The position numbers and the translations under genes were made by a program. A stretch of DNA of 64,000 nucleotides from positions 1,556 to 65,555 of the forward strand of contig CAKZKA010000267.1 of NCBI GenBank assembly GCA_937120965.1, in the 5' to 3' direction. The DNA comes from an uncultured Chloroflexota bacterium. Lineage in GTDB: Bacteria; Chloroflexota; Chloroflexia; Chloroflexales; Chloroflexaceae. Below the pieces are notes generated by a model. The model searched no databases, was not told the DNA's origin, and was given only the letters and a program-made list of their open reading frames with translations. Shown here one piece after another: positions 13,186 through 38,966 of the stretch. Position 1 is the stretch's first letter; each line of letters begins with the position of its first letter.

Positions 13186-13188
13186 TAA

Positions 13189-13290: not shown

Positions 13291-13293
13291 TAA

Positions 13294-13455
13294 CCCCCTC
13301 CCTGACCCTCCCCCGCTGGGGGAGGGAACCGGGCGCCTCCCCACCGGCAGGGGGTTGGGGCAACCCGGTTTCCCCGGTTCCCAACCGCTGGTGGGAGCGG
13401 CTGGCGCCCCACCGGCAGGGGGTTGGGGCAACCCGGTTTCCCCATATGTTCGCAT
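13294..13455 (-). repeat. Composite repeat block with two palindromes
   Basis: Remainder of the GGGGGAGGG module. Palindromes GGGGCAACCCGGTTTCCCC at 13357-13375 and 13425-13443, separated by the CCAACCGCTGGTGGGAGCGGCTGG hairpin. ATATGTTCGCATCAG. Confidence 0.85.
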
Positions 13456-13564
13456 CAGGGTGCGTTACCGCGGACCGCGCGCATACGCTACCGGCGCGCT
13501 GACCAGCGCCGATCTGCGGTATGATAGAATGAGCAATCGCCAGACAGACCAGCAGGAGACCCCC

Positions 13565-19613: not shown

Positions 19614-21449
19614 TCAGTGGGCGGCCTGTTCCACCACATCACGCTCCTCGACGTAGCGGAAGATATCCGTCTCGCTAATGATCCCTACCGGCACGCCATC
19701 GCGCACCACCACGACGCGGCGAATGTTCTTTTCCAGCATCAGGGCGGCACACTCGGCAAGGGTCTTCTCCGGCGAAATGGTGATCAGCGGCCGTGTGGCA
19801 ATCTGATCGACCGTCATCCCGTTGACGCGCACATCGTCGCGGACGACCTTCTTGAGCACGTCGCGCATCGTCATGATACCCCAGCCCTTGCCGTCGCTCG
19901 GCTCGACCACCACCGAGGTGATACCCCGGGAGCGCATCAGGTGGGTAGTATCGCTGAGCGGCGCATTCCCCGCCACCGAGACCACATTGCGGGTCATCAG
20001 CGCGCCGACCGTGGCGCGCGGGAAGGTTTCGTGCTCGACCGGGCGTACCAGATCGGGGCTGACGATATCGTGGCCGATGCGGTGCTCATCGCCGATGACC
20101 CGATCCATATTGGCGATCATGGCATCGGCGAACTCGGAGGTGCGCACCTCGCGCGCGCCCTCCATGAGGCGGGCGAAGTCGTAGGTCACCACCTTCTGCT
20201 GGATGGTGCGTTCCAGGGCCGCGACGATCAGATCGGCGGCTTCGATCCAGCCCATGTAGCGCAGCATCATATCCCCCGAGAGAATCACCGAGCCGGGGTT
20301 GACCTTGTCGAGATTGGCATATTTGGGGGCGGTGCCGTGGGTGGCCTCGAAAATGGCGTGCCCGGTGACGTAGTTGATGTTGCCTCCAGGGGCAATGCCA
20401 ATGCCGCCGACCTGGGCCGCCAGGGCATCGGAGAGGTAATCGCCATTGAGGTTTGGCGTAGCGATAACGTCGAACTCATCGGGGCGCGTGAGCACCTGCT
20501 GGAGGGTAATGTCGGCGATGGCGTCCTTGATCAGGATGCGCCCGGCCTTGAGGGCCTCGGACTGCTCGGCATTGGCCGCAGCCTCGCCCTGCACCGCCCG
20601 GGTGCGCTCCCACTGCGACCAGGTATACACATAGTCGCCAAAGGCCCGTTCGGCGTACTCGTAGCCCCAATCGCGGAAGGCCCCTTCGCTGAACTTCTGA
20701 ATGTTGCCCTTGTGCACCAGGGTCACACTCTTGCGCTTGAACTGTATCGCGTACTGAATGGCAGCGCCGACCAGGCGCTCGGTGCCGATGCGGCTGATCG
20801 GCTTGATACCCACGCCAACTTCGACCTTGCCCTCGGGACTGGCGCCTAGCATTTGCAGGAAGGCATCGGTCTTTTCGGCGGTGCCAAAGCGGATCTTCTC
20901 GAAATCCTTCGGGAACGTGACCCGCAGGAACTCCAGAACCTTCTGCGCTTCGGGCGTACCGGCGCGATACTCGATCCCCGCGTAGAGATCCTCCGTATTC
21001 TCGCGGAAGATCACCATATCCACCTTCTCGGGGTGCTTGACCGGCGACGGCACGCCGCGGAAGTGACGCACCGGGCGCAGACAGACGTAGAGATCGAGGA
21101 GCTGGCGAAGCGCCACGTTGAGAGAGCGAATACCCCCACCGACGGGCGTCGTCAACGGCCCTTTGATACCCACCAGATACCGCTGGAACGCCTCGACCGT
21201 CTCGTCGGGAAGCCAGTTGCCGGTCTCACGGAAGGCCTTTTCGCCGGCCAGCACCTCGTGCCAGACGATCTTCCGTTTTCCGCCGTAGGCTTTCTCAACC
21301 GCCGCGTCGAAGACGCGCACGCTCGCGCGCCAGATATCCGGACCAGTGCCGTCGCCCTCCACGAAGGGGATGATCGGACGGTCAGGAACGACCAGCTTGC
21401 CGTCCTTGATTGAAATGATCTCGCCTTCAGGGGCCGTGCGCGTTGCCAT
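19614..21449 (-). CDS. icd: NADP-isocitrate dehydrogenase fused to a C-terminal CBS-pair domain (611 aa)
   Basis: ATG at 21449 after [41 protein letters not shown] and [10 protein letters not shown] are prokaryotic ICD motifs. The ICD part ends at ...FADAMIANM. It is followed by 163 aa containing two CBS motifs (19617-20105). Confidence 0.85.
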
Positions 21450-21947: not shown

Positions 21948-21975
21948 TTGACACAAGTTTAAAGATGCGTATAAT
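21948..21975 (+). promoter_or_regulatory. Sigma70-like promoter candidate for the nuo operon (TTGACA-16-TATAAT)
   Basis: Consensus hexamers at 21948-21953 and 21970-21975, in the only AT-rich stretch upstream of nuoA. Confidence 0.5.
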
Positions 21976-22133: not shown

Positions 22134-22490
22134 ATGCTCGGTTCGTTTGCGCCCATCCTGATCCTCTTCCTGATCGCCGTCTTTATCGCGGTGTTCGTGA
22201 TCACCGTCTCCTCGCTCCTGGGGCCCAGGCGCAGCAGCCCGCGCAAGCTGGCGCCCTACGAGTCGGGCATGGAGCCAATCGGCCCCGCCATCCGGCGCAT
22301 TCCGGTAAAGTTCTACGTCGTGGCGATGCTGTTTATCGTCTTCGACATTGAAGTAGTCTTCTTCTACCCCTACGCCCTGGTCTTCCGGCAACTTGCCGTG
22401 CCGGGCCTGATCGCCATCGGCGTCTTCTTCCTGGTGCTCGTCGTCGGGTTCGTCTATGAATGGAGGAAAGGGGCCCTGACATGGGAATAG
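22134..22490 (+). CDS. nuoA: NADH-quinone oxidoreductase subunit A
   Basis: 118 aa, three TM helices, [11 protein letters not shown] and [10 protein letters not shown] motifs. Confidence 0.9.
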
Positions 22491-23017
22491 AGGAAAAGGC
22501 CGGTGATCTGGGGGTGATCACGACCTCCCTTGAATATGTCGTCAACTGGGGCCGCACCAACGCGATGTGGCCGCTCCTCTTCGGCCTGGCCTGCTGCGCC
22601 ATCGAGATGATGGGCGCGCAGAGCGCCAACTATGACCTGTCGCGCTTCGGGATGGAGATCAACCGCGCATCGCCCCGCCAGGCCGACCTGATGATCGTCG
22701 CCGGGCGCGTCAGCCGCAAGATGGCCCCGGTTGTGCGCCGACTTTATGACCAGATGAGCGACCCGAAGTGGGTGATCGCGATGGGCGATTGTGCCGCCTG
22801 CGGGGGGATCTTTAATAACTATGCCATTGTGCAGGGGGTGGATGAGGTCGTGCCGGTGGATGTCTATGTTGCCGGCTGCCCGCCCCGCCCCGAGGCGTTG
22901 ATTCACGGTATCATGCTTCTGCACGAGAAGGTTAAGCGCGAGAAGATCAGCGGCAAAAAAGAGGACCCGATCCGCCTCAGTCAGCCGCTGATCCAGGTTG
23001 ATGTGGCCAGGAAGTAG
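22481..23017 (+). CDS. nuoB: NADH-quinone oxidoreductase subunit B
   Basis: [19 protein letters not shown] and GCPPRPE are the cluster N2 cysteine motifs. The ATG at 22481 overlaps the end of nuoA; an alternative ATG is at 22460. Confidence 0.9.
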
Positions 23018-23174
23018 CCCTTCCATCGCTCCCGGCTGGTCACGACAATCTCACGAGCCAGCGTCTGCGCCGACGTTTGCCGAGCCGCCCGCTGCTCATC
23101 CGCAAGCTGCCAGCGAACACCGAAGTGACGTTTCCGCGGCAGCGCGCCAGCGTCACAGGATACAGGTCTTGCGT

Positions 23175-23693
23175 ATGGATAACCAGACCCTGCTCAACCG
23201 CATCACCTCCCGCTTCCCCGATGCCATCGTCGAGTCGACGGAGTTTCGCGGCGACCTGAGCCTCAGCGTGCGCCCTGAACACTACCTGGCCCTGGCGCAG
23301 TTCCTGCGCGATGATCCGGCGCTGCGCTATACGTTCCTCGAAAACCTCTGCGGCGTGGATTACCTGGGGCGCACGCCGCGCTTTGAAGTCGTGGTCCACC
23401 TGGTGAGCATGCAGCACCTGCACCGCGTCTGTCTGAAAGTTGGCGCGCCCGAGGAGCATCCGCACGTTCCCTCGCTCACCCCCCTCTTTGCCACCGCCAA
23501 CTACCAGGAGCGCGAAGCCTACGACCTGCTCGGCATCGTTTTCGACGGGCATCCTTCGCTGACCCGCATCCTGATGCCCGATGATTGGCTCGGCCATCCG
23601 CAGCGCAAGGATCACCCCCTGGTCGAGGAAGAAATCGCCTTTACCTTCAATCAAGAGCAGATCTACGCCCATAAGCCGTTCGCCAAGCAATGA
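23175..23693 (+). CDS. nuoC: NADH-quinone oxidoreductase subunit C
   Basis: MDNQTLLNRITSRFPDAIV..., ANYQEREAYDLLGIVFDGHP motif. The upstream in-frame stretch is low-complexity and not taken as coding. Confidence 0.85.
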   Translation: MDNQTLLNRITSRFPDAIVESTEFRGDLSLSVRPEHYLALAQFLRDDPALRYTFLENLCGVDYLGRTPRFEVVVHLVSMQHLHRVCLKVGAPEEHPHVPSLTPLFATANYQEREAYDLLGIVFDGHPSLTRILMPDDWLGHPQRKDHPLVEEEIAFTFNQEQIYAHKPFAKQ

Positions 23694-23741
23694 TGCGTTG
23701 CGCCCCCGCCCGGGGCGGGGCGCGTGCGCCGAGATACGCCC

Positions 23742-24977
23742 ATGACGAATACCCTCCACGTGCCCACCCCGCAGGAGATTACCGAACCAGCCCTCGCCGG
23801 CAAGACCGAGACGATGGTGCTCAATATGGGGCCGCACCACCCCAGTACCCACGGGGTGCTGCGCCTGGTTGTGGAACTCGACGGCGAGGTGGTGGTGAAT
23901 GTCGCGCCCGATGTCGGCTACCTCCATACCGGCATCGAGAAGACGATGGAGAGCAAGACCTACCAGAAAGCGGTGGTGCTCACCGACCGCATGGATTACC
24001 TGGCGCCGCTCTCGAACAATCTCTGCTACGCCCTCGCCGTAGAAAAACTGCTGGGCGTCGAGATCCCCGAACGGGTGCAGGTGATCCGGGTGTTGCTGGT
24101 CGAGTTGCAGCGCATCGCCTCGCACCTGGTCTGGCTCGGCACCCATGCCCTCGACCTGGCGGCGATGAGTGTGTTCCTATACGCCTTCCGCGAACGTGAG
24201 CAGATCCTCGATATCTTCGAGCTGGTGTCTGGCGCGCGCATGATGACCAGTTATATCCGCGTGGGCGGGCTGGCCTACGATGTGCCGGCGGAGTTTTTGC
24301 CCACCGTTGATGCGTTGCTGCGGATCATGCCCGAGCGCATCGATGAGTACGAGTCCCTGCTCACCGGCAATCCCCTCTGGCTCGAGCGCACCGTCGGCGT
24401 CGGGGTGATTGACGCCGAATCAGCTATCGCCTACGGCCTCACCGGGGCCAACCTGCGCGCCACCGGCGTGCCCTACGATGTGCGGAAGGCTATGCCCTAC
24501 AGCGGCTACGAAACCTACGATTTCGAGATCCCGGTGGGGAAGAATGGCGACAATTACGACCGCTACCGGGTGCGGATGGCCGAGATGCGCCAGAGCGTGA
24601 AGATCGCCCGGCAGGCCTGGGAGCGCCTCAGCGCCCTTGGCCCCGGCCCCTACACTACCCTCGATCGCAAGGTCGCTCCCCCGCCCAAGAGCGAGATCAC
24701 CCACAGCATGGAGGCGCTGATCCACCACTTTAAGCTGTGGACCGAGGGCTTCAAGCCGCCCCGTGGCGATGCCTATGTCAGCATCGAGAGTCCCCGCGGT
24801 ATTCTGGGGTGCTACGTGGTCAGCGACGGTAGCCCTAAACCCTGGCGCGTCCACTTCCGCGCCCCTTCCTTTATCAACCTCCAGGCGCTCGCGCACATGG
24901 CCAGGGGGCGCCTCGTCGCCGACCTCGTTGCGCTGATTGCCAGTCTCGATCCGGTGTTGGGTGAAGTGGATCGGTGA
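23742..24977 (+). CDS. nuoD: NADH-quinone oxidoreductase subunit D
   Basis: MVLNMGPHHPSTHGVLRLVVELDGE, GYLHTGIEK and a C-terminal LGEVDR. Confidence 0.9.
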   Translation: MTNTLHVPTPQEITEPALAGKTETMVLNMGPHHPSTHGVLRLVVELDGEVVVNVAPDVGYLHTGIEKTMESKTYQKAVVLTDRMDYLAPLSNNLCYALAVEKLLGVEIPERVQVIRVLLVELQRIASHLVWLGTHALDLAAMSVFLYAFREREQILDIFELVSGARMMTSYIRVGGLAYDVPAEFLPTVDALLRIMPERIDEYESLLTGNPLWLERTVGVGVIDAESAIAYGLTGANLRATGVPYDVRKAMPYSGYETYDFEIPVGKNGDNYDRYRVRMAEMRQSVKIARQAWERLSALGPGPYTTLDRKVAPPPKSEITHSMEALIHHFKLWTEGFKPPRGDAYVSIESPRGILGCYVVSDGSPKPWRVHFRAPSFINLQALAHMARGRLVADLVALIASLDPVLGEVDR

Positions 24978-25046
24978 GGCCGCGATCCCCCGGGTCTTGT
25001 GAGCCTGTGGGGTCCGCGCCAGCGAACAGACTCCAGGTGAACTGTT

Positions 25047-25730
25047 ATGTTGCTTGAGACACACAGGGCCGAAATCGAGACCATTCTCTCACGCTACGAC
25101 TCGCGGCGCAGCGCGGTGCTGCCGCTGCTCTACCTGGCGCAAGACACCTACGGTTACCTGACGGAGGCGGCCATTCGCGAGGTTGCCGCCATCCTTGGCC
25201 TGCCGCCCACCGATGTCTTTGAAGTGGTTGGCTTCTACACTCTGTTCTACAACCGCCCCGTGGGCACGTGGGTGCTCCAGGTCTGCGACGATGTGCCCTG
25301 CTGTTACCTCGGCGCCGAGGAACTGATCAGTGCGCTCAAGCAGAGCCTGGGGATCGCCGAGGAGCAGACCACCAGTGACGGGATGTTCACCCTCCAGCGT
25401 GTCAAGTGCCTGGCCGCCTGTGACCGGGCGCCGGTGCTCCAGGCTAATCTCGATTATGTCTACGATGTGACGCCGGAGCGGGTCAACGCGCTGCTGACGA
25501 ACCTGCGCGCCCGCGCCGCCGAGGCCCGCCAGCGGGGCGTGAGCGGGCGCTTCGCCGAGGACTTCGAGTGGGGACCTGACGGCGCCCTGACCCTGATCGA
25601 CCGCGCCGCGCCCTACCGGCCCCGCCAGTTTCCCGCGGCAAGCCCGCCCGCCCCGCTAGAGCCGGAACCCGTGCCCGAAGCCGATGCTGGCCACGACCGG
25701 CCCACGGACCGCAAGGCGTCGCCGCTCTGA
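25047..25730 (+). CDS. nuoE: NADH-quinone oxidoreductase subunit E
   Basis: Thioredoxin-like 2Fe-2S subunit: VCDDVPCCYLGAEEL...KCLAACDRAP. It has a Pro/Ala-rich C-terminal tail. The stop TGA is embedded in the CTGAGGTGAAC repeat motif. Confidence 0.85.
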   Translation: MLLETHRAEIETILSRYDSRRSAVLPLLYLAQDTYGYLTEAAIREVAAILGLPPTDVFEVVGFYTLFYNRPVGTWVLQVCDDVPCCYLGAEELISALKQSLGIAEEQTTSDGMFTLQRVKCLAACDRAPVLQANLDYVYDVTPERVNALLTNLRARAAEARQRGVSGRFAEDFEWGPDGALTLIDRAAPYRPRQFPAASPPAPLEPEPVPEADAGHDRPTDRKASPL

Positions 25731-25815
25731 GGTGAACCTGTGGGGAAACCGGGTTTCCCCACGCCCCTCCCTGAGGGAAGGGTTTGGGAGGGCGCAGCCC
25801 TCCCCACAAACGACT
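25728..25815 (+). repeat. Terminal motif, perfect palindrome and H unit in the nuoE-nuoF spacer
   Basis: CTGAGGTGAACCTGT, GGGGAAACCGGGTTTCCCC (25742-25760), GGGAAGGGTTTGGGAGGGCGCAGCCCTCCCC. Confidence 0.85.
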
Positions 25816-25846
25816 GCCCATTACCCCTAGAAATGCGAGCAGTGCC

Positions 25847-27181
25847 ATGGGCCTGAGTGAGCATATTGTGATGCGGGAACTCGACGTTCCCGAGATCAAC
25901 GACTTCGAGGTGTACCGACGCCACGGCGGTTGGGAAGCCTATCGCATGGCGCTCAAGGAGAAGAACCCCGCCGATATTGTGGCCATGGTCAAAGAGTCGG
26001 GACTGCGGGGCCGCGGCGGCGCCGGGTTTCCCACCGGCATCAAGTGGGGTTTTCTGCCCAAAGGCGTCTATCCACGCTATTTGCTCTGTAATTGTGATGA
26101 ATCGGAGCCGGGCACGTTTAATAATCATCAGATTATTGACCGTAATCCTCATCAGTTAATTGAGGGAGTGGCGCTTTCGGCCTTTGCGATTGAGTGTCAC
26201 ACTGCCTACATCTATATGCGCGGGGAGTTCGCCGCGGCGGCAATCACGCTCGAACGGGCCATCGCTGAGGCCTATCGCGCCGGCTTCCTGGGCCGGAACA
26301 TCCTGGGCACGGGCTTTGACCTCGACATCTACGTGCATCGGGGCGCGGGGGCGTACATCTGCGGCGAGGAGACGGCGCTCATGGAGTCGCTGGAGGGAAA
26401 GATCGGCCAGCCGCGCCTCAAGCCGCCCTTTCCCGCCGTGGCCGGGCTGTATGGCAAGCCGACGATTATTAACAATGTCGAGACGCTGGCCAATGTGCCC
26501 CGCATTGTCGAGAAGGGCGTGGCCTGGTACCGCAGCCACGGCACCGAGAAGAGTCCCGGCACCAAGTGCTTTTCGCTCTCCGGCCACGTCAACCGCCCCG
26601 GCAACTACGAACTGCCCTTCGGCGTGCCGCTGCGGGAGTTGATCGAAAGCCCTGAGTATGGTGGCGGGATGCGCGGCGGGCGCCCGGTGAAGATCATCAT
26701 TCCCGGCGGGGCTTCCGCCCCCTGGCTGACCCACGAGCACCTCGATGTGCCCCTCGATTACGAGAGCGTCGCCGCCGCCGGCTCAATGCTCGGTTCCGGC
26801 GCGGTGATTGTGCTCGATGATACAGTGAAGGCGCCCCACGTTGCCTATAAAATGGACGAGTTCTTCAAGCACGAGTCCTGTGGTAAGTGTACTCCCTGCC
26901 GCGAGGGCACGCACTGGCTGGTCCGGGTGCTCCACCGTATCGCCGAAGAGGGTCACGCCACGCCGGAGGATATTCCCACGTTGCACGGTATTTACAATCA
27001 GATGGCCGGGAATTGCTTCTGCCTCCTGGGTGAGAGCGCCGTGATGCCGATCAAGAGCGCCCTGACGCTCTTCCCCGAGGAGTTCGAGGCGGTCGTCGCG
27101 GCCAGCCGCCGGCTGCCGCACGGCAATGGGCAGCGCGATGGCAAATCCGGGCCGGTGATCCCCCTGTCGGCCAGGCACTGA
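25847..27181 (+). CDS. nuoF: NADH-quinone oxidoreductase subunit F
   Basis: GLRGRGGAGFPTGIKW (FMN site), CNCDESEPGTF, HRGAGAYICGEETALMESLEG, ESCGKCTPCREG (N3 cluster). Confidence 0.9.
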   Translation: MGLSEHIVMRELDVPEINDFEVYRRHGGWEAYRMALKEKNPADIVAMVKESGLRGRGGAGFPTGIKWGFLPKGVYPRYLLCNCDESEPGTFNNHQIIDRNPHQLIEGVALSAFAIECHTAYIYMRGEFAAAAITLERAIAEAYRAGFLGRNILGTGFDLDIYVHRGAGAYICGEETALMESLEGKIGQPRLKPPFPAVAGLYGKPTIINNVETLANVPRIVEKGVAWYRSHGTEKSPGTKCFSLSGHVNRPGNYELPFGVPLRELIESPEYGGGMRGGRPVKIIIPGGASAPWLTHEHLDVPLDYESVAAAGSMLGSGAVIVLDDTVKAPHVAYKMDEFFKHESCGKCTPCREGTHWLVRVLHRIAEEGHATPEDIPTLHGIYNQMAGNCFCLLGESAVMPIKSALTLFPEEFEAVVAASRRLPHGNGQRDGKSGPVIPLSARH

Positions 27182-27290
27182 GGCTGGTCTGATGGGCGCA
27201 TGGGGAAACCGGTTTTCCCCATCCCCCTGCCTGCCGGGGAGGGTTTGCGATGGCGCAGCCCTCCCGGCAACCAACCTGTGTTCTGGCAGG
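27179..27290 (+). repeat. Palindrome (1 indel) and degenerate H unit in the nuoF-nuoG spacer
   Basis: GGGGAAACCGGTTTTCCCC (27202-27220), then GGGGAGGGTTTGCGATGGCGCAGCCCTCCCGGCAACCAACC. Confidence 0.75.
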
Positions 27291-27378
27291 GTGCGGCGCG
27301 GCCGTATGGGCGTCTGGCATGCGGATCGGGTCGGTGGTTACTCGTCACTGGATAGAGCGCTCTGGGAAGCGAGCAGAT

Positions 27379-30084
27379 ATGGCGGATGTAACGATTACAG
27401 TTGATGGGGTGACCCTCAAGGTCCCCGCCGGAACGAATGTGGTTGATGCGGCGCGTATGGCGCAGATCGCCATTCCGGTCTTTTGTTACCACCCGCGGAT
27501 GAAGCCGGTGGGGATGTGCCGGATGTGCCTGGTGCAGATCGGCACGCCGAAGCTCGACCCTGCCACCCGCCAGCCCCTCCTCGATGATGCCGGCAAACCG
27601 GTAATTGCGATGCTGCCGAAGTTGCAGACCGGCTGCACCACCCCGGTGAGTGAGGGCATGGTGATCAACACGCAGAGCCCCGAGGTCAAGTTCGCTCAGC
27701 GGGGCGTGCTGGAGTTTCTGCTGACCTCGCACCCGCTCGATTGCCCGGTCTGCGATAAGGGCGGCGAGTGCCCCTTGCAGAATCTGACCATGGCATGGGG
27801 GCCGGCTACCAGCCGTTTCGACTACACCGACAAGGTCCATTTCGAGAAGCCGGTACCGCTGGGTGACCTGATCCTGCTCGATCGCGAGCGCTGTATCCTC
27901 TGCTCGCGCTGCGTGCGCTTCCAGGATGAGCTGGCCGATGATCCGGTTCTTGGCTTTGACCACCGCGGGCGCAACTGGATGATCATCTCGCGGAGCGATC
28001 CGCCCTTCGATAGCAAGTTTTCCGGCAACACGACCGATATCTGCCCGGTTGGAGCGCTGACCAGCAGCGATTTCCGCTTCCGCGCCCGCGTCTGGGAACT
28101 GCGGCCCGTTCCGGCGGTGTGTACGTTTTGCCCGGTGGGCTGCAATATGACCCTGGATATGCGTCACGAGCGCCTGATGCGCGTGATGCCCCGCGAGAAC
28201 GCCGCGGTTAACGATATCTGGCTCTGCGACAAGGGTCGCTACGGCCATCGCTTCTTCGAGCACGAGAGTCGCCTGACGACGCCGCTGATCCGCCGGGGTG
28301 AGCACCTGGTCGAGGCGAGTTGGGAGGAGGCCCTGGGTCTGGTGGCCGAGCAGCTCGAGGCGGTGCGGCGCGCCCGCGGCGGCGCGGCCATCGCCGGGTT
28401 GGCTGCGCCGCGCCTGAGTAACGAAGATCTGTATCTGTTCCAGAAGCTCTTCCGCGAGCACCTGGAGAGCAACAACCTTGACCATCTGCCCGGCGCTCCC
28501 GGCGAACCGGCCCACGACGACCTGGGGGCGCTGCTGGGCGTGGGGCGCGACGCAAACCTGATGGATCTGGGCGCGGGCGATGTGGCGCTGGTTCTGGGCG
28601 CCGATCCCGAGGAGGAGGCGCCGCTCTACGTGCTGCGGCTGCGCAGCGCGGTGCAGCAGGGAGCGCACCTGATTGTGGCCAACCTGCGCCCCACTAAACT
28701 GGAGCGTTCGGCCACCCTCGCTGCCCGCTACCTCCCCGGCGGGGAGCTGGCGTTCCTCCACGGTCTGCTGCGCGAGTTGCTCGCCACGGGCGGCGGCCGG
28801 GTAACAGTCAAGAGCAACGGGTTCGATGAGCTGAAGCGCGTGCTCAACGACACCACCGCCGAGCAGATCGCCGAACGCTCGGGTGTGGCCGTCGAAACCA
28901 TTGGCGCCGCTGCCCGTGCCATCGGCGAGGCCAGACGCCTGGTGATCATCTACGGCGCCGAGGCGCGCAGCGCCGGGCCGGCGCTGGTCGAGGCCCTGGG
29001 CGCGCTGCTGGCGCTGAGCGGGAAGGCCGGGCAGAGCCACAGCGGCCTGATCGCCCTGCTGCCCGGCGGCAATAGCCGTGGCGCCCTCGATATGGGCGTG
29101 CGCCCCGACGCCCGCCCCGGCTACGCGCCCCTGGCCCGCCCCGGTCTCGGCGCTCGCGATCTCTGGCCGGCAATGCGCGATGGGCGAGTGCGCGCGGTGT
29201 GGATCGCCGGGCTGGACCCCGCCGCCAGCCTGCCGGCGGCGCGCGCGGCCCTGGCCGAAGCTGAGCTGGTGGTGGTGCAGGATCTCTTCCTCACCGCCAC
29301 TGCGCGCCTGGCCCACGTGGTGCTCCCTGCCGCCAGCGTGGCCGAACGCGAGGGCACCTACACCACCGCCGAGCGGCGGGTGCAACGCTCGCGGCAGGCC
29401 CGTGGCCCCGTGGGCCATAGCCGGCCCGACTGGCAGATCTTCGCCGAGGTGGGCCGCGCCCTGAGCGCCCGCGCCGGCGAAGCGCCAGCTCGTGGCACTG
29501 CCTCCAGCGACGCCTGGAACTACCTGAGCGCCGCCGAGGTGGCCGCCGAGATCGCCGAGCGCGTGCCCGGTTACGCCGGCGTGACCTACAGCGCCCTGGC
29601 CGCCACCGGCAAACCCGGCGCCTGGGGCCGCCAGGCCAACGAGGCGATTTTCTATGACGGCACCAATTACGAGAATACCGAAGGTGTCGGGATCAAGCTG
29701 CCCGCGCCAATCGAAACCGGCGCCGTCAGCGTCAATCTGGTGCCCCGTCCCATCCCGGCCCCTGCCGACGATCGCCCGCTCCTCCTCTTGAGCCAGCCTC
29801 TGGCCTACGGCGGCGACCCGCTCCTGCGCGGCTCGAAACTGGAGCAGCATATCCCGGCCCCTTACGTCGCGCTGAACGTGACCGACGCCGACCGGCGCAA
29901 TATCCACTTCGGCGACCTGGTGCGGCTCGACTCCGCCGCCGGCTCACTTACCCTGCCGGCCCGCGTGGTTGCCGACGTGCCGCCCGGCGTGGTCCTCGTT
30001 CCGTCCGATCTGCCGGGCGTGGAACTGGCCGCAGTCCAGACAGGCCCACGCACCCGTGTTCACCTGGTGAAGCTGGTGGTGTAG
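27379..30084 (+). CDS. nuoG: NADH-quinone oxidoreductase subunit G
   Basis: MADVTITVDGVTLKVPAGTNV, CYHPRMKPVGMCRMCLV, HPLDCPVCDKGGECPLQ, CILCSRCVRF, followed by a molybdopterin-oxidoreductase-like domain. Confidence 0.9.
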   Translation: MADVTITVDGVTLKVPAGTNVVDAARMAQIAIPVFCYHPRMKPVGMCRMCLVQIGTPKLDPATRQPLLDDAGKPVIAMLPKLQTGCTTPVSEGMVINTQSPEVKFAQRGVLEFLLTSHPLDCPVCDKGGECPLQNLTMAWGPATSRFDYTDKVHFEKPVPLGDLILLDRERCILCSRCVRFQDELADDPVLGFDHRGRNWMIISRSDPPFDSKFSGNTTDICPVGALTSSDFRFRARVWELRPVPAVCTFCPVGCNMTLDMRHERLMRVMPRENAAVNDIWLCDKGRYGHRFFEHESRLTTPLIRRGEHLVEASWEEALGLVAEQLEAVRRARGGAAIAGLAAPRLSNEDLYLFQKLFREHLESNNLDHLPGAPGEPAHDDLGALLGVGRDANLMDLGAGDVALVLGADPEEEAPLYVLRLRSAVQQGAHLIVANLRPTKLERSATLAARYLPGGELAFLHGLLRELLATGGGRVTVKSNGFDELKRVLNDTTAEQIAERSGVAVETIGAAARAIGEARRLVIIYGAEARSAGPALVEALGALLALSGKAGQSHSGLIALLPGGNSRGALDMGVRPDARPGYAPLARPGLGARDLWPAMRDGRVRAVWIAGLDPAASLPAARAALAEAELVVVQDLFLTATARLAHVVLPAASVAEREGTYTTAERRVQRSRQARGPVGHSRPDWQIFAEVGRALSARAGEAPARGTASSDAWNYLSAAEVAAEIAERVPGYAGVTYSALAATGKPGAWGRQANEAIFYDGTNYENTEGVGIKLPAPIETGAVSVNLVPRPIPAPADDRPLLLLSQPLAYGGDPLLRGSKLEQHIPAPYVALNVTDADRRNIHFGDLVRLDSAAGSLTLPARVVADVPPGVVLVPSDLPGVELAAVQTGPRTRVHLVKLVV

Positions 30085-30145
30085 GGGCGCGGAACGCGCA
30101 GCAACGGGCTTGTGGCCCGCGGTTCCCGCCCCCTCAGAGGTGCGC

Positions 30146-31444
30146 ATGAACTGGCTCAACATCCTCATTCTGGTCGTACAGGCCTTCATCATCACCCTGG
30201 CCGTGACGACCGCCTTTGCCTACCTGACGCTCTTCGAGCGGCGCCTGCTTGCCCGCTTTCAGAACCGCGTCGGGCCGAACCGGGCCGGGCCGGGGGGCTT
30301 CTTGCAGCCGGTCGCTGACGCGGTCAAGCTCTTCTTCAAAGAAGATATCGTTCCCGCAGCCGCGGATAAGCCGGTCTACCTGCTGGCGCCAGCGCTCGCC
30401 GTGATCCCCGCGATTATCATCTGGGCGGTGATCCCCTTCGGGTGCCTCAATGTGAACTGGGACTACCGCGCCTGCTTCGCCGACCCGCGAACCAGCGAGG
30501 TGCGTAACATACTCCAGATCGCCGAGATCAACGTCGGCGTGCTCTACCTGTTCGCAGTGACCGGCATCGGTGTCTATGGCATTACCCTGGCCGGGTGGGC
30601 CAGCAACAACAAGTACTCGATGCTCGGCGGCATCCGCTCGTCGGCCCAGTTGATCAGCTACGAACTGGCGCTCAGTTGCGCCGTGCTGGGCGTGGTGATG
30701 ACCTACAGCACCCTGAGCACCGCCGAGATCGTCTACCTGCAAGGGGGGCTGTGGGGCATCGTGCCCCAATTCCTCGGCTTCGTGCTGTTTATGGTCGCCT
30801 CGACCGCCGAGGTGGTGCGCGCACCCTTCGACCTGGTCGAAGCCGAACAGGAACTGGTGGGCGGCTACAACACCGAGTATGGCTCGATGAAGTTCGCCCT
30901 CTTCTTTATGACCGAGTATATCAAGCTGATCGCCATCAGCGCCATTGCCGTAACCTTCTTCTTCGGCGGCTGGCGCTTCCCCGGTCTCCAGACCCTGGGG
31001 CAGGGCATAGAGGCGCTGGCCGGCCCGGTCGTGGCAAGCCTGGTCGTCGGGCTGGTCTCGCTGGGCGCGTTTTTGCTCAAGCTGGTGGCCTTTCTGTTCG
31101 TCTCGGTCTGGATCCGCGCCTCGTGGCCGCGCCTGCGCTACGACCGGCTGATGACCCTGGGCTGGAAGTGGCTGCTGCCCCTGGGGCTGCTCAATCTGGT
31201 CTATACAGCAGTGACCTTCGTCATCGTTCCCGATCAGCGCCTGGCCTCGTTCATCCTGCTGGCCCTGAGCCTGATCACCCTCGCCGTCGCGATTGGGTTC
31301 AGCTCGGTTCCGCGGCCAGTGGACAACGTGACCTATGTGAAGGATCTGCGCCAGGGCAGCGTGGCGCCGCCTCCCCCAGCCGAAGCCGGCGAGAGCCAGG
31401 CGGCGTCAACCAGCCCGCGTCAGCCGGCCAGTTCGCGGGGCTGA
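30146..31444 (+). CDS. nuoH: NADH-quinone oxidoreductase subunit H
   Basis: [41 protein letters not shown]. Multi-pass membrane protein with a hydrophilic C-terminal tail. Confidence 0.9.
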
Positions 31445-31492
31445 GGCAAGGTTCAATGTTTTCCCGACAGGTGACTGCGAGAGGAGCACCAA

Positions 31493-31990
31493 ATGCTCGG
31501 AGAGCTATTCAAAGGTCTTGGCACCACCCTGCGTTACATCTTCAAGCCGCCGGTGACGGTGCAGTACCCGGAGGTCAAGCGGCCGGTGCGCGAACGCTTC
31601 CGCGGGCGCCACGAACTCAAGCGCTTTGCCGATGGCACGGAGCGCTGCATCGGCTGCTCGCTGTGCGCCGCGGCCTGCCCGGCTGACGCCATCCTGGTCG
31701 TGCCCGCCGAAAACGACCCGGACAACCCTGTCTCCCACGGCGAACGCTACGCCGCTGTCTATGAGATCAACATGCTGCGCTGCATCTTCTGCGGCTACTG
31801 TGAGGACGCCTGCCCCACCAATGCGATTGTGCTGGAGCACCAGTACGAACTGTCATTCTATGACCGGCGCGCGTCCATTTACACCAAGGAGATGTTGCTG
31901 GTGCCCCCCGACAGGGGCCACGGTGATCCGCCGCCCATCTTGCGCGAACTGCAACGTCGGCCCAGCCCGCCCGCGCAGATCGATCTGTAA
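31493..31990 (+). CDS. nuoI: NADH-quinone oxidoreductase subunit I
   Basis: Two 4Fe-4S ferredoxin motifs, [12 protein letters not shown] and [12 protein letters not shown]. Confidence 0.9.
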
Positions 31991-32131
31991 GTAGCAAGCA
32001 CTCCACAGCGCCACAGCTCGACCCCTCTACCCGAGCGGCTTCTGTGGCGCTGAACGCCAGATTGTCACGCGGGTTCGAACCTTCCCCGGGGGAAGCATTG
32101 AGAGCCATTGAGGAGAGAGACGAGGAAGCGC

Positions 32132-32668
<537 letters not shown>

Positions 32669-32870
32669 GCGCGCCGGCCGCACCTTTCGGCACGTTAACG
32701 GTTCGGGCAAGCGCAAACAGGTCCGGGGTTCATCTTGTGGCCCGCGCACCCGGGTTGCCCCCGAAGGGCTGCGCGCCGCAGGGTTCTCCGAGAAGAGCTG
32801 GCTGGCGCCCTGCGCCCCTCCCGACCACAGCGTTCACTGCACCGGAAGGACCACAACGGAGACCATACTC

Positions 32871-33173
32871 ATGGTGCCTACCAGTTACTACATCATGCTC
32901 AGCGCGGCGCTGTTCGCCATCGGGGTGCTTGGCGTGCTGATCCGGCGCAACGCGCTCGTCGTCTTTATGTCGGTCGAGTTGATGCTCAACGCGGCCAATC
33001 TGGTCCTGGTGGCCTTTGCCCGCGAACGGCTGAGCATTGACGGGCAGGTGCTGGTGTTTTTCGTGATCACCGTGGCTGCCGCCGAGGTTGCCGTGGGGTT
33101 GGCGCTGCTGGTGGCGATCTTCCGCACCAAGCATACCGCCGATGTTGACGAGGTCAGTACGCTCAGGGGCTGA
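32871..33173 (+). CDS. nuoK: NADH-quinone oxidoreductase subunit K
   Basis: 100 aa, three TM helices, [11 protein letters not shown] and [13 protein letters not shown] motifs. Confidence 0.9.
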
Positions 33174-33193
33174 GCGCGGAAGATCCGAGGTAC

Positions 33194-35127
<1,934 letters not shown>

Positions 35128-35131
<4 letters not shown>

Positions 35132-35625
35132 GGTGAACATAGCCCGCCCGCGGGAGGGTTTGGGAGGGCAAAGCCCTCCCAGGAAACAACCCGCCAGCGG
35201 GGAGGGTTTGGGAGGGCGAAGCCCTTCAACGGGTTTCACCTGCTCCGGGATAGGCTTCCTGGGACGCAGAGGGGAGATGGGCCAACGAATGGGAAACGAA
35301 TAAACGAATGCGAGCGGCGTGTCTGACTCTGAGGTGAACATAGCCCACCCACGGGAGGGTTTGGGAGGGCGAATTCCTCCCAGGAACCAACCCGCCAGCG
35401 GGGAAGGTTTGGGAGGGCGAATTCCTCCCAGGAACCAACCCGCCAGCGGGGAAGGTTTGGGAGGGCGAAGCCCTCCCAAGAACAATACTATGTTCATTCT
35501 GGCGTTGTGCGGCACAGCCGCATGGACGGATGATGTGAACATACGGGGAAACCGGGTTTCCCCACCTGCGGTGAGCCTGTCGAACCGCACCCCTGCCAGT
35601 GGGGAGGGTTTGCGAGGGCGCAGTC
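35128..35625 (+). repeat. About 500 bp of repeats filling the nuoL-nuoM spacer
   Basis: Two CTGAGGTGAACATAGCCC heads (35128, 35329). Five H units, two with a GAATTC loop. ACGAAT-rich module at 35282-35313. GGCGTTGTGCGGCACAGCCGCATGG module. Perfect palindrome at 35545-35563. CTGCGGTGAGCCTGTCGAACCGC module. One degenerate H unit. Confidence 0.9.
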
Positions 35626-35686
35626 CGGCCCGTAAACCCCTCTCGTCACGACTGACCGACGGCGTGCCGTTACAAGAGGTTGCTCT

Positions 35687-37240
35687 ATGGAGACCCTGCC
35701 CATCCTCTCTCTGATCCTGTGGCTGCCCACGCTGGGCGCCCTCGGTCTATTGCTGGCGCCGCGCGACAACGCCGAACTGGCGCGCCGGATGGCCCTGATC
35801 GTCGCCCTGCTAACCTTCGTGGTCTCGCTGGCATTACCTTTCGGCTACCGCGCCACGCCCGGCGACGCCTCCACCATGCGCTTCGTTGAGAACCTGCCCT
35901 GGTTGCCGATGTTCGGCGCCAGTTACAGCCTGGGGGTTGACGGCGTAAGCCTGTGGCTGGTACTGTTAACCACCTTTCTGCTGCCGATCGTGATTCTGTC
36001 AACCTGGGACTCGGTGCATACCCAGGTGCGGAACTTCCAGATCCTCATGCTGCTGCTCGCCACAGCGATGATCGGCGTATTCATCAGCCTGGATCTCCTG
36101 CTGTTCTACATCTTCTGGGAGTTCACGCTGATCCCCATGACCCTGCTGATTGGCATCTGGGGTGGAAGCAACCGCATCTACGCCGCGCGCAAGTTCTTTC
36201 TCTACACCTTCTCCGGCTCAGTGTTGATGCTGGTAGCGATCATCGGGCTGTACGTGCTGCACCGCGACGCCCTTGCCATCGGCCAGCCCGGTTACACCGG
36301 CACATTCAACTTCACCACCATCCTGGCAAACCTGCGCGGCGGCGCCTTGCAACTGGATGCCACCATCGAGCGGTTGCTCTTCGGGGCCTTCTTCCTGGCC
36401 TTCGCGATCAAGGTGCCCCTCTGGCCCTTCCACACCTGGCTCCCCGACGCCCACGTTGAAGCGCCGACAGCCGGCTCGGTCATCCTGGCGGGCGTGCTGC
36501 TGAAACTGGGCAGCTACGGCCTGATCCGCTTCAACCTGACGCTCTTCCCCGAGGCCTCGCGCTGGGCAGCGCCCGCCATCGCCATTCTGGCGGTGATCGG
36601 TATCATCTACGGCGCGATAGTCGCCTTCGCCCAGAGCGATATGAAGAAACTGGTGGCCTACTCCTCCGTCAGCCACATGGGGTTCATCGTGCTGGGGATC
36701 TTCGCCCTCAACCACGAAGGCGTCAGCGGGGCCATCTTGCAGAGCATCAACCACGGCCTCTCGACCGGCGCGCTATTTCTGATCGTCGGCGTGCTCTACG
36801 AACGGCGACACACCCGCGAGATGGCCGAGTACGGCGGCATCTGGAAAGTTATGCCGGTCTACGGCGGCATTACCCTGCTCGTGACCCTCTCCTCAGCGGG
36901 ACTGCCGGGCCTCAACGGTTTCATCGGCGAGTATACGATCATGCAAGGCGCCTTCCTGGCGCCCGAATTGAGCTGGCCCTTCCTGGGCTTCGCCGTGCTG
37001 GGCGTGGTGCTGGCCGCGGTCTACCTGCTGCGGATGTACCAGACCGTGTTTATGGGCGACCTGCGCAACCCTGAGAACCAGGACCTGAACGACCTGAACC
37101 CGCGCGAACTGACGACCCTGGCAGCCCTGTGCCTGCCGATCATCGCGCTGGGGCTATACCCGGCTTTTGCCTTCGAGCCAATGCAGGCCAGCGTCGGTGA
37201 GGTGCTCACCGGGATCGCGACCGCGGTGGCCGGTCGGTAG
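35687..37240 (+). CDS. nuoM: NADH-quinone oxidoreductase subunit M
   Basis: Antiporter-like subunit with FYIFWEFTLIPM and AIKVPLWPFHTWLPDAHVEAPTAGSVILAG. Confidence 0.9.
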   Translation: METLPILSLILWLPTLGALGLLLAPRDNAELARRMALIVALLTFVVSLALPFGYRATPGDASTMRFVENLPWLPMFGASYSLGVDGVSLWLVLLTTFLLPIVILSTWDSVHTQVRNFQILMLLLATAMIGVFISLDLLLFYIFWEFTLIPMTLLIGIWGGSNRIYAARKFFLYTFSGSVLMLVAIIGLYVLHRDALAIGQPGYTGTFNFTTILANLRGGALQLDATIERLLFGAFFLAFAIKVPLWPFHTWLPDAHVEAPTAGSVILAGVLLKLGSYGLIRFNLTLFPEASRWAAPAIAILAVIGIIYGAIVAFAQSDMKKLVAYSSVSHMGFIVLGIFALNHEGVSGAILQSINHGLSTGALFLIVGVLYERRHTREMAEYGGIWKVMPVYGGITLLVTLSSAGLPGLNGFIGEYTIMQGAFLAPELSWPFLGFAVLGVVLAAVYLLRMYQTVFMGDLRNPENQDLNDLNPRELTTLAALCLPIIALGLYPAFAFEPMQASVGEVLTGIATAVAGR

Positions 37241-37261
37241 GCACATCACCAGTGGCGAGGT

Positions 37262-37356
37262 CGTTCCCGGAAGGGCTGCGCCCTCCCACACCCTCTCCTC
37301 GGGGAGGGGTGCGGTTCGACAGGCTCACCGCAGGTGGGGAAACCCGGTTTTCCCAT
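37262..37356 (-). repeat. H-like hairpin, GCGGTTCGACAGGCTCACCGCAGGT module and palindrome in the nuoM-nuoN spacer
   Basis: GGAAGGGCTGCGCCCTCCC...GTGCGGTTCGACAGGCTCACCGCAGGTGGGGAAACCCGGTTTTCCC (palindrome at 37336-37354). Confidence 0.8.
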
Positions 37357-37371
37357 CTTTTCAGATCAGAA

Positions 37372-37482
37372 TACCATTGCGACCATCTACGATTTTAGAT
37401 TTTGGATTGTGGATTGCCACGCTGGGCAGCGCAACGCCTGAAACCGCTTCAAGCAATGCGGTATCATCAACGGTAATTGATA
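37372..37482 (+). mobile_element. Degenerate MITE copy, subfamily A (111 bp), between nuoM and nuoN
   Basis: TACCATTGCG...GATTTTAGATTTTGGATTGTGGATTGCCACGCTGGGCAGC...GGTAATTGATA. The ends are mutated and no TSD is recognisable. It ends 20 nt before the nuoN ATG. Confidence 0.65.
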
Positions 37483-37502
37483 TCACACAGGGAACTGAGC
37501 GT

Positions 37503-38966
37503 ATGGAGAGTCTACAGATCCCCCCGGTTGACCTGCGCCTGCTGACGCCCCTGTTGATCGTCGTTGGCTGGGCCGGGGCCTTGCTGCTGATTGATGTCTT
37601 CTTCGTTCCCGACGGGCGCAAGAAGATCACCGGCTACCTGGCAATTGCCGGCCTGGCCGTTGCGGGGCTGGCCGGCATCCCGCTGTGGAACCTGAGCGGC
37701 AGCACCTTCTCGGGCATGCTGGTGCTCGACCGCTACAGCCTGGCGCTGACCTGGATCTTCCTCATCGCCGGGGCGTTGAGCATCGCCGTAGCCCTGGACT
37801 ACCTGCCGCGGCACGCCATCGAGCAGGGGGAATACTACCCGCTGATCATGTTCGCCGTAGGGGGCATGATCCTGATGGCCCAGAGCGCCGACCTGATCAC
37901 CCTCTTTCTGGGCATCGAATTGCTATCAATCACCCTGTACATCCTGACCGGCTTCGCCTACCCGCGGGTAGCCTCGGAAGAGGCGGGGATGAAGTACCTG
38001 GTGCTGGGGGCCTTTGCCGCAGGGTTCTTTGTGTACGGCATCGCGCTGATCTTTGGCGCTACCGGCGCCACCAGCCTGGCCGGAATCGCCGCGTACCTGG
38101 GCCGGCAACCCTTCGCGCCGCAGGAAGAAACCCTCTTCCTGGCCGGCGCAAGCCTGGTGTTGATCGGCTTCAGCTTCAAAATCGCCCTGGTGCCCTTCCA
38201 CATGTGGACACCCGATGTCTACGAAGGCTCGCCGACGCCGGTGGCAGCGTTCATGAGCGTCGGCACCAAAGGCGCCGCCCTGGCGGCGCTCCTGCGGGTC
38301 ACACTGGCTCTGGAAGAGGCGCAGACCTTCTGGCTGCCGATCCTGGCAGTGCTGGCGGCGGCGACGATGATCCTCGGCAACCTGGGGGCGCTGGGGCAGA
38401 GCAACCTGAAACGCATGCTGGCCTACTCCAGCATCGGTCACGCCGGCTACATCCTGCTGGGGATCATGGTCGCGGCGGAGCGGGGGGCGGAGGCGTTCCT
38501 GTTCTACATCCTGGCGTACACCCTCACCAATCTGGGCGCCTTCGGTGTGCTGATCGCCCTGGAGCAGCGGGGCGAGGCGGCCTGGAGCATTGACGACTTC
38601 GCGGGACTGTACCAGCGCCGGCCCCTGCTGGCGGTGGCGATGGCCCTGTTTATGTTCTCCCTGGCCGGTGTGCCGCCCACCGCCGGCTTTATGGGCAAGT
38701 TCTTCATCTTCACCGCGGCCTACGCCGGAGGTCTGGGCTGGCTCGTGCTCATCGGCGTGCTGACCAGCGCCATCGCCGCCTACTACTACCTGCGCGTGGT
38801 GGTGAAAATGTTCATGCAAGAGCCGGTGCGCGAGGTGCGCCCGGAACTCACCCGCGGACTGAACACCGAGATCCTCATCGCCGGAGTCGCTACCCTGATC
38901 CTGGGCCTGTTGCCCACCCCGATTGTGCTGCTCGTGGAGCGCTCGCTGGTGGCGCTGGGGGGCTAG
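37503..38966 (+). CDS. nuoN: NADH-quinone oxidoreductase subunit N
   Basis: ATG at 37503 (MESLQIPPVDLRLL). FKIALVPFHMWTPDVYEGSPTPVAAF. The track ORF start at 37167 lies in nuoM and repeats. Confidence 0.9.
   Translation: MESLQIPPVDLRLLTPLLIVVGWAGALLLIDVFFVPDGRKKITGYLAIAGLAVAGLAGIPLWNLSGSTFSGMLVLDRYSLALTWIFLIAGALSIAVALDYLPRHAIEQGEYYPLIMFAVGGMILMAQSADLITLFLGIELLSITLYILTGFAYPRVASEEAGMKYLVLGAFAAGFFVYGIALIFGATGATSLAGIAAYLGRQPFAPQEETLFLAGASLVLIGFSFKIALVPFHMWTPDVYEGSPTPVAAFMSVGTKGAALAALLRVTLALEEAQTFWLPILAVLAAATMILGNLGALGQSNLKRMLAYSSIGHAGYILLGIMVAAERGAEAFLFYILAYTLTNLGAFGVLIALEQRGEAAWSIDDFAGLYQRRPLLAVAMALFMFSLAGVPPTAGFMGKFFIFTAAYAGGLGWLVLIGVLTSAIAAYYYLRVVVKMFMQEPVREVRPELTRGLNTEILIAGVATLILGLLPTPIVLLVERSLVALGG

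Follow-up and report, generated by a model that had tools for sequence, protein, structure and literature searches.

Modular hairpin repeats in the intercistronic spacers of a Chloroflexaceae nuo operon

Repetitive extragenic palindromic (REP) sequences are short palindromes, one end of which carries a conserved tetranucleotide, GTAG or CGTC, and their termini can supply stop codons to flanking open reading frames (ORFs) (PMC3733652). In Escherichia coli they are also found inside operons, where those lying within 15 nt of a stop codon are reported to stall ribosomes (PMC12306157). One GTAG-tagged REP palindrome (GTAGGTCGGATAAGCCGCCTTCGCGGTGCATCCGAC) resides in the 163-bp spacer between nuoL and nuoM of E. 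coli K-12. The present analysis concerns the nuo operon of an uncultured Chloroflexaceae bacterium, carried on a 64,000-nt stretch of DNA that is called the window below (assembly GCA_937120965.1, contig CAKZKA010000267.1, positions 1,556 to 65,555). The spacers of this operon hold a lineage-specific family of modular hairpin repeats together with one unrelated MITE (miniature inverted-repeat transposable element) that has terminal inverted repeats, and the same repeats are spread through intergenic DNA genome-wide.

The repeats are abundant, extragenic and polymorphic among close relatives. They show no preference for orientation, they are flanked by CTGAG, they often begin at stop codons, and they are excluded from the sequence next to ribosome-binding sites (RBSs). 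The explanation that we favor, and consider probable, is that they are tolerated selfish DNA resembling REPs and MITEs rather than a new regulatory system, in an operon that is transcribed as one unit and in which any consequences for expression are by-products.

A modular repeat family in intergenic DNA

Within the window the sequence GGGAGGGTTTGGGAGGGC occurs 31 times where 0.14 occurrences are expected, and GGGGAAACCGGGTTTCCCC gives 61 strand-matches against an expectation of 0.05. These counts, far above chance, bear out an initial annotation of the DNA which had described repeat modules in the nuo spacers. Modules are present in about 20 of the roughly 40 intergenic regions of the window, including divergent and convergent ones, and in none of its coding sequence. 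Because about half of the intergenic regions are filled in this way, the nuo operon is one victim among many.

Analysis of the repeat family showed that the main family is modular, with a full unit of about 120-200 nt made up of the following parts in order.

Part 1: left end, GTGAAMATA
Part 2: hairpin H1 (GGGGAAACCGGGTTTCCCC) or a GCCCGC... variant
Part 3: hairpin H2 (CCCCTCCC..GGGAGGGG)
Part 4: at least one 48-nt unit with GGGAGGGTTTGGGAGGGC-loop-GCCCTCCC, a G-quadruplex (G4) motif overlapping an 8-bp hairpin
Part 5: inverted TATGTTCAT
Part 6: hairpin M4 (GTGCGGCGCAGCCGCAT)
Part 7: right end, ...GGAYGRCTGAG

Arrays have a tandem period of 48 nt or 122 nt, and the complete composite unit is present as a 122-nt tandem at 50822-51065. 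The cleanest reference copy is the array at 50822-51227, in which a 122-nt unit is repeated 2.4 times in tandem; matches across the array amount to 93%, and adjacent full copies are 98% identical. Its start coincides with the stop codon of a gene for a ComEC-like competence protein (49331-50824).

A metagenome scan with the left end and H1 recovered 120 loci spanning 1.07 Mb. In these loci, the G4/hairpin module was found 424 times in 331 kb of non-coding DNA and not once in 800 kb of predicted coding sequence. The occupied spacers between co-directional genes were divided into 74 with modules only in the sense orientation, 60 with modules only in the antisense orientation and 2 that were mixed (p = 0.26), arguing that the repeats have no strand preference relative to transcription. 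Within a spacer, the orientation is nearly always uniform (134 of the 136 occupied spacers), and arrays are strictly head-to-tail.

The second element is unrelated to the main family. It is AT-richer, about 108 nt long and bounded by 9-bp terminal inverted repeats, and the window contains at least six copies; outside the nuo operon, copies lie at 7461, 13190-13290, 17180, 48890 and 52791.

Two other regions of the window are also heavily occupied. The 1119-nt divergent intergenic region at 12341-13459 consists almost entirely of modules of several families in both orientations, including a copy of the AT-rich MITE and a 33-nt AACGAATGGGAAACGAATAAACGAATGCGAGCG motif that is also found in the nuoL-nuoM block. 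The ethanolamine-utilization cluster at 58610-62963 (- strand; amino-acid permease, eutB, eutC) is interrupted by arrays of 426 and 289 nt. The genes eutB and eutC are usually adjacent; here they are separated by the 289-nt array, in the same pattern as the nuo genes. The array after eutB begins exactly at the eutB TGA stop, with cTGAT followed directly by GTGAAAAT.

The nuo operon in the window and in relatives

The window contains a complete nuoA-N set of 14 genes at 22134-38966 (+ strand), with every subunit named by NCBIfam or Pfam. Spacer lengths below run from the stop codon to the best-supported start, and the coordinates of nuoJ and nuoK are those obtained after frame correction.

nuoA: 22134-22490 (+)
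nuoB: 22460-23017 (+)
nuoC: to 23693 (+)
nuoD: 23742-24977 (+), 69 nt before nuoE
nuoE: 25047-25730 (+), 116 nt before nuoF
nuoF: 25847-27181 (+), 197 nt before nuoG
nuoG: 27379-30084 (+), 61 nt before nuoH
nuoH: 30146-31444 (+), 48 nt before nuoI
nuoI: 31493-31990 (+), 141 nt before nuoJ
nuoJ: 32132-32668 (+), 202 nt before nuoK
nuoK: 32871-33173 (+), 20 nt before nuoL
nuoL: 33194-35131 (+), 555 nt before nuoM
nuoM: 35687-37240 (+), 262 nt before nuoN
nuoN: 37503-38966 (+)

The initial annotation had named four expanded spacers, and both their lengths and their coordinates are as it gave them: nuoE-nuoF (116 nt, 25731-25846), nuoF-nuoG (197 nt, 27182-27378), nuoL-nuoM (555 nt, 35132-35686) and nuoM-nuoN (262 nt, 37241-37502). 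As a list of the expanded junctions it was incomplete, missing the long nuoI-nuoJ (141 nt) and nuoJ-nuoK (202 nt) spacers. The MITE that it placed just upstream of nuoN is also real; it is the AT-richer element at about 37377-37484, which is bounded by terminal inverted repeats and ends some 18-20 nt before the nuoN ATG. The contents of the spacers are as follows.

25731-25846 (+): nuoE-nuoF spacer; one sense element directly after the nuoE stop, cTGAG followed by GTGAACCT, with H1 at 25742-25760, then H2, the G4/hairpin module at 25776-25804 and a conserved RBS-proximal tail
27182-27378 (+): nuoF-nuoG spacer; sense H1 at 27202-27220, a degenerate G4/hairpin module at 27237-27265, followed by a decayed hairpin of M4 type and, ahead of the ATG, the conserved tail CTGGGAAGCGAGCAGAT
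31991-32131 (+): nuoI-nuoJ spacer; 141 nt, lacking canonical modules and containing a hairpin with a stem of 11 bp
32669-32870 (+): nuoJ-nuoK spacer; 202 nt, representing a 187-nt insertion relative to locus L002
35132-35333 (+): nuoL-nuoM element 1, directly after the nuoL stop, cgcTGAG followed by GTGAACATAGCCC; two 48-nt G4/hairpin units; end ...GCGAGCGGCGTGTCTGACTCTGAG
35334-35534 (+): nuoL-nuoM element 2; GTGAACATAGCCC, three 48-nt G4/hairpin units, inverted TATGTTCAT, M4 hairpin, end ...GGACGGATGAT
35535 to about 35643 (+): nuoL-nuoM element 3; GTGAACATAC, H1 at 35545-35563, module H5 at 35570-35588 and a degenerate G4/hairpin module
35644-35686 (+): nuoM RBS-proximal segment, kept in locus L001; small hairpin GACGGCGTGCCGT, then AAGAGG 9 nt before the ATG
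37261-37356 (-): nuoM-nuoN antisense element; G4/hairpin module at 37280-37297, H5 at 37311-37329 and H1 at 37336-37354
37377-37484 (+): AT-richer MITE of the nuoM-nuoN spacer; terminal inverted repeats ATACCAtT...AATTGGTAT, GATTTKG heptad repeats; mostly absent from locus L001

The first hairpin of the nuoE-nuoF element starts 11 nt past the nuoE stop. The nuoJ-nuoK insertion looks like decayed antisense copies, with degenerate H1-like and GTGAAC-like pieces. The middle 100 nt of the nuoL-nuoM block, which were considered as a possible unique segment, are not unique: 33 nt recur at 12836-12868, and the ...GCGAGCGGCGTGTCTGACTCTGAG tail of element 1 is found both there and in metagenome loci.

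Long repeat blocks of this kind might in principle be artefacts of assembly, arising from mis-joined or collapsed repeats, and another contig from a metagenome-assembled genome (MAG), GCA_036733005.1, does break inside the nuoL-nuoM block, an indication that assemblers have trouble there. However, the 555-nt block recurs base-for-base in an independent contig from a Joint Genome Institute (JGI) metagenome, in which 7554 nt of this locus show 5 mismatches to the window; the reading frames and flanks are intact, and related yet distinct arrays are present at the same sites in relatives. The chance that the blocks are artefactual is accordingly minimal.

A scan with NuoL, using one genome per species, provided 26 loci onto which all Nuo proteins were mapped; all but two come from Chloroflexales, the exceptions being a Ktedonobacteraceae contig and an unclassified MAG. 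Closest to the window is L001, a Chloroflexaceae MAG with 98% NuoL identity. In the loci with 88% NuoL identity (L015 and L020), the spacers are compact (10-84 nt) and hold none of the modules, which argues that the operon was ancestrally tight and that the repeats arrived later. The initial annotation's view of the operon as "invaded" is supported by these compact spacers. It had also proposed comparing nuo spacer lengths in related genomes, and the repeat-free spacers found there are the comparative half of what it said would speak against its functional reading and mark the repeats as neutral passengers. The clade with 94-98% NuoL identity has long spacers, but at other junctions and with other modules, or with none.

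Individual junctions illustrate this variation. The nuoE-nuoF spacer holds H1 and the G4 hairpin in the window, a GCCCGC-type unit in L001 and nothing recognizable in L004. The nuoH-nuoI spacer is 48 nt in the window versus 189 nt, with a full unit, in L001. The nuoI-nuoJ sequence is unlike the 140-nt spacer of the 98% relative, and this junction is only 10 nt in the 88% relatives, while nuoJ-nuoK is 202 nt in the window and in L001 and 19 nt in L002, L004 and L025. The nuoM-nuoN spacer is 262 nt in the window, 154 nt in L001 and 7-12 nt in L003 and L004, and the MITE is an indel relative to L001 with no target-site duplication legible. Finally, the 555 nt of nuoL-nuoM compare with 152, 151, 207, 150 and 46 nt in other loci. 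Element 3 of this block is the older one, common to the window and L001, and about 400 nt have been gained exactly between the nuoL stop and this pre-existing left end. A second stacking event of the same type was found in metagenomes, and filled and empty allele pairs also show that arrays gain and lose 47-48-nt units.

The 17-30 nt upstream of the start codons are conserved across filled and empty alleles at every junction, for example GAGAGGAGCAYCCA-ATG for nuoI, AGAGGTGCGY-ATG for nuoH and CTGGGAAGCGAGCAGAT-ATG for nuoG. Since this segment is conserved in all alleles, insertions have always fallen downstream of the preceding stop codon and short of the ribosome-binding region.

Other kinds of expansion were noted in the relatives' nuo clusters, more distant Chloroflexales having different arrays of their own. 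Many lineages have an enlarged nuoL-nuoM junction, whereas nuoK-nuoL remains short; the former holds 761 nt with about 17 H1-like hairpins (GGGGAAACCGTGTTTCCCC) in Ca. Viridilinea halotolerans (L008, 11960-12720) and a tandem array of a 27-nt repeat (GGCTTGCCCGCCAGGGCGAAATGCAC) in an Oscillochloridaceae MAG (L005, 3626-4011). The nuoG-nuoH junction of L008 (6254-7083) consists of 830 nt of another hairpin repeat, and its 1425-bp nuoF-nuoG spacer (2057-3481) contains three co-oriented ORFs, encoding an endonuclease of the Uma2 family (Pfam E = 6.5e-33), a 98-aa product with no Pfam hit and a PIN-domain protein, which together look like a toxin-antitoxin-like insertion in the nuo cluster. A different repeat, composed of GGTGTGGA octamers and their inverse (CTCCACAC/CTCTACAT), forms long foldbacks in nuo spacers of close relatives (nuoI-nuoJ of L025, nuoJ-nuoK of L003 and about 9386-9585 of L002) and is absent from the nuo operon of the window. 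Divergent from nuoA in the window is an ORF for NADP-isocitrate dehydrogenase (19614-21449, - strand) with a C-terminal match to a CBS-domain region (NCBIfam, residues 600-720), which would be an unusual fusion if real.

Proposed insertion at stop codons and expression of the operon

Of 418 copies of the main family's left end, GTGAAMAT, 325 have CTGAG or CTGAT immediately 5' of it; in about 240 of these the upstream sequence is otherwise unique. In L015 and L020, where the nuoL site is uninvaded, cgCTGAG is already present there. Sense copies found up to 300 nt downstream of a gene number 154. For 42 of them the gene ends with the flanking TGA, and for 19 others with the TGA of GTGAAC; only 12 more begin within 30 nt of a stop. 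Stop codons thus coincide with the CTGAG-flanked end in about 40% of these gene-proximal copies. Both nuoE and nuoL have their stop codon supplied by the flanking TGA.

We model the units as selfish DNA that moves or expands and whose left end would dock immediately 3' of CTGAG or CTGAT. The right end of the unit would itself regenerate CTGAG, and new copies could therefore dock at the same site and build up head-to-tail arrays. Docking after a TGA stop should be both common and harmless, since TGA is part of the CTGAG/CTGAT flank. Copies would persist solely downstream of one gene's stop codon and ahead of the following gene's RBS, a survival pattern that would leave the RBS-proximal 17-30 nt untouched, and the 555-nt nuoL-nuoM block could have arisen by three serial insertions at the nuoL stop.

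A more specific proposal, which we regard as tentative, is that the repeats represent a stop-codon-docking element of an undescribed type, inserting 3' of CTGAG (typically a TGA stop plus one base), regenerating CTGAG and stacking head-to-tail. For such an element, the second TGA, which lies in GTGAAC in another reading frame, could also terminate the upstream ORF. If the proposal is true, operon spacers can grow without harm to coding sequence or ribosome-binding sites. In a bolder version, termination and re-initiation at invaded junctions may be modulated jointly by a hairpin within 15 nt of the stop and by GAGGTGA, a Shine-Dalgarno-like sequence of the docking site.

Several results weigh against the selfish-DNA explanation. 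One clean 144-nt insertion has extra sequence beyond the boundary between CTGAG and GTGAAC, leaving the limits of the element not fully defined, and the single informative filled/empty pair has CTGA on both sides, which fits target duplication as well as a regenerated target. No transposase was recognized by Pfam among the 43 ORFs of the 64-kb window, and mobility is deduced from polymorphism and copy number only. Searches by tblastn over 1.1 Mb with IS608, ISDra2 and RAYT were also negative, although the queries were approximate and the test is a weak one. Some element is present at nuoE-nuoF, nuoF-nuoG, nuoL-nuoM and nuoM-nuoN in both the window and the 98% relative, and this could reflect selection, not shared ancestry. 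Finally, only 2 of the 12 pairs of the M4 hairpin are compensatory, a weak covariation signal that does not demonstrate structural constraint past the sequence identity of recent copies.

A self-BLAST of the 1.07 Mb for bounded repeats of 1-2 kb returned only syntenic blocks and no insertion sequence (IS) copies, and among the 29 non-nuo ORFs of the window Pfam recognized kinases, peptidases, transporters and eut genes and no transposase. In the metagenomes, strains differ by the presence or absence of whole small genes with modules at both junctions (L107 8074-9272 versus L049, and L063 121-565 versus L121). The variable genes are an apparent LysR-type regulator of 304 aa, so named from its sequence only, and a 144-aa ORF; this pattern suggests that the repeats mediate gene gain and loss by recombination. 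The two insertions had been considered as possible "cargo" of the element, and were rejected as such: one is the LysR-type regulator, recognized by its N-terminal sequence only, and the other the small unannotated ORF.

A perfect sigma-70 consensus, TTGACA-16-TATAAT, lies at 21948-21975 (+ strand), about 160 nt upstream of nuoA, and is likely to be the operon promoter. With this 12/12 match serving as positive control, a promoter scan of the nuo spacers found nothing above 9/12. The initial annotation had raised the possibility that the repeats provide internal promoters, making nuoF, nuoG, nuoM and nuoN separate transcription units. The length of the spacers and one weak match, CTGAAA-18-TATCAT (9/12) in the nuoM-nuoN MITE at 37438-37467, are consistent with that idea. 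Yet no spacer reaches 10/12, the modules are GC-rich palindromes without -10-like boxes and are equally common in both orientations, and the compact spacers of the 88% relatives point to single-operon ancestry. Internal promoters are thus very improbable.

Termination can be weighed in a similar way. If the hairpins were partial terminators or attenuators, they would impose polarity along the operon, and the strong GC-rich stems lend themselves to this role; in the nuoM-nuoN spacer, moreover, the antisense H1 is followed on the mRNA strand by AUCUUUUCAG, a weak terminator-like site (H1 then ATCTTTTCAG, 37337-37354). Against this, the sequence after the hairpins is A/C-rich (CACAAACG, GGCAACC, AGGAAACAACCC) rather than a run of T residues, the region has 14 terminator-like sites where shuffled sequences give 10.2, which is no excess, and nuoM and nuoN encode essential parts of the same complex. 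A terminator role is accordingly very unlikely. The repeats bear neither a promoter nor an intrinsic-terminator signature, and the operon is proposed to be one transcription unit, most likely read from the consensus promoter upstream of nuoA as a single transcript, taken to be free of processing.

The RNA of the spacers is predicted to be highly structured. The initial annotation counted more than 15 stable hairpins or G4 motifs in the path of such a transcript, which is fair as to hairpins, since the four spacers (nuoE-nuoF, nuoF-nuoG, nuoL-nuoM and nuoM-nuoN) contain 16 non-overlapping local hairpins with dG of -9 kcal/mol or lower; the G4 contribution is small, amounting to four strict motifs on the mRNA strand. 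An RNA G-quadruplex was considered as the key feature of the repeats and rejected, given these four motifs, the competing 8-bp GC hairpin and the unbiased orientation. The nuoL-nuoM spacer as a whole folds at -279.9 kcal/mol (z = -6.9 versus shuffles). The further statement that the downstream genes have weak or no Shine-Dalgarno sequences applies to nuoF only (-3.3 kcal/mol); nuoG (-6.4), nuoM (-7.0) and nuoN (-5.2) are near the window median of -6.7. The same sequences next to the RBS recur in relatives without repeats.

These hairpins invite the alternative that the repeats are selected, REP-like intercistronic RNA elements, which would act as processing sites or exonuclease stops, segment the 17-kb nuo mRNA and tune subunit synthesis. 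In its favor are the great stability of the hairpins, the presence of an element at four to six junctions in both the window and the 98% relative, and the independent expansion of nuoL-nuoM in several Chloroflexales lineages at a junction where E. coli has a REP. REPs are also reported to stabilize upstream mRNA and to stall ribosomes when within 15 nt of a stop (PMC12306157), and the H1 of nuoE is at 11 nt. The distribution of the repeats argues otherwise: orientation is unbiased (74 sense versus 60 antisense spacers), module content at one junction varies among near-identical genomes, the junctions are empty in relatives at 88-95% identity, and the same repeats occupy divergent and convergent intergenic regions. 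Furthermore, a search of the whole window against Rfam gave no family that reached its gathering score. Each Nuo subunit is present once in complex I, and the subunits are needed 1:1, so that differential stoichiometry, another proposal of the initial annotation, is not needed and finds little support. Selected RNA elements are therefore unlikely, though they merit more weight than internal promoters or terminators.

With the repeats regarded as tolerated selfish DNA, whatever influence they had on expression would stem incidentally from the RNA hairpins and would not be a selected regulatory design. By analogy with E. coli REPs and the bacterial interspersed mosaic elements (BIMEs) that they form, such side effects might be that upstream cistrons are shielded from 3' exonucleases, that translational coupling is lost and, where a hairpin begins within 15 nt of the stop (11 nt for nuoE), that termination is disturbed. 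By themselves, the nuo repeats reveal no new regulation of complex I. They do show that a 14-gene operon for an essential 1:1 complex can absorb more than 1 kb of hairpin repeats if the stop codon and the 20-30 nt before each start are spared, making the nuo locus a natural map of the constrained parts of intercistronic regions. There are practical consequences as well, in that the arrays break MAG assemblies and, we suspect, could mislead gene callers and CRISPR or terminator predictors.

Comparison with described repeat systems

No description of these repeats was found in the literature on Chloroflexales genomes. They constitute a previously undescribed family in uncultured Chloroflexaceae, and the coincidence of the CTGAG-flanked end with stop codons is a clue to the insertion mechanism.

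Some features recall bacterial MITEs inserted in operons, such as Correia/NEMIS in Neisseria, BOX, RUP, ERIC and SMAG in Stenotrophomonas, which are small, non-coding, mobile and strain-variable repeats, transcribed together with adjacent genes and folding into hairpins as RNA. The 108-nt element of the nuoM-nuoN spacer resembles this group in its 9-bp terminal inverted repeats. The main family differs in being modular and arranged in tandem arrays, with an undefined target duplication.

Other features resemble non-autonomous elements derived from the IS200/IS605 family (palindrome-associated transposable elements) and the REPINs mobilized by RAYTs. The outermost hairpins, H1 on the left and M4 on the right, are each set back about 10 nt from the corresponding end, and, as with IS200/IS605 elements, the left end adjoins a fixed short sequence (CTGAG or CTGAT, 325/418), a CTGAG pre-existed at the empty nuoL site of L015 and L020, and strains are polymorphic for presence or absence. 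No clear target duplication is seen, although the filled/empty pair with CTGA on both sides would fit one. Unlike IS200/IS605 elements, these repeats have short 9-bp inverted termini (GTGAACATA/TATGTTCAT), which is more MITE-like. No Y1/HUH transposase, RAYTs included, was found among the 43 ORFs of the 64-kb window or in a rough 1.1-Mb tblastn with approximate queries.

The strongest parallels are with the REPs and BIMEs of E. coli. In both cases short GC-rich palindromes are present in many copies that are strictly extragenic, and are assembled with linker motifs into mosaic clusters, often within operons just past stop codons. The differences are equally clear. Neither GTAG nor CGTC occurs in the consensus flanks of H1, M4 or the G4/hairpin module, the conserved flank being CTGAG or CTGAT beside GTGAAMAT; the units are longer (120-200 nt, with at least four different hairpins); and the arrays are direct and head-to-tail (134 of 136 spacers in a single orientation) rather than built from inverted REP pairs as in REPINs and BIMEs. 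The repeats are not filed as REPs because they lack the GTAG/CGTC tag and form direct rather than inverted arrays. REP/BIME elements are nevertheless the closest in behavior and location, and the Chloroflexaceae repeats are a new family of a known general kind, outside any named family.

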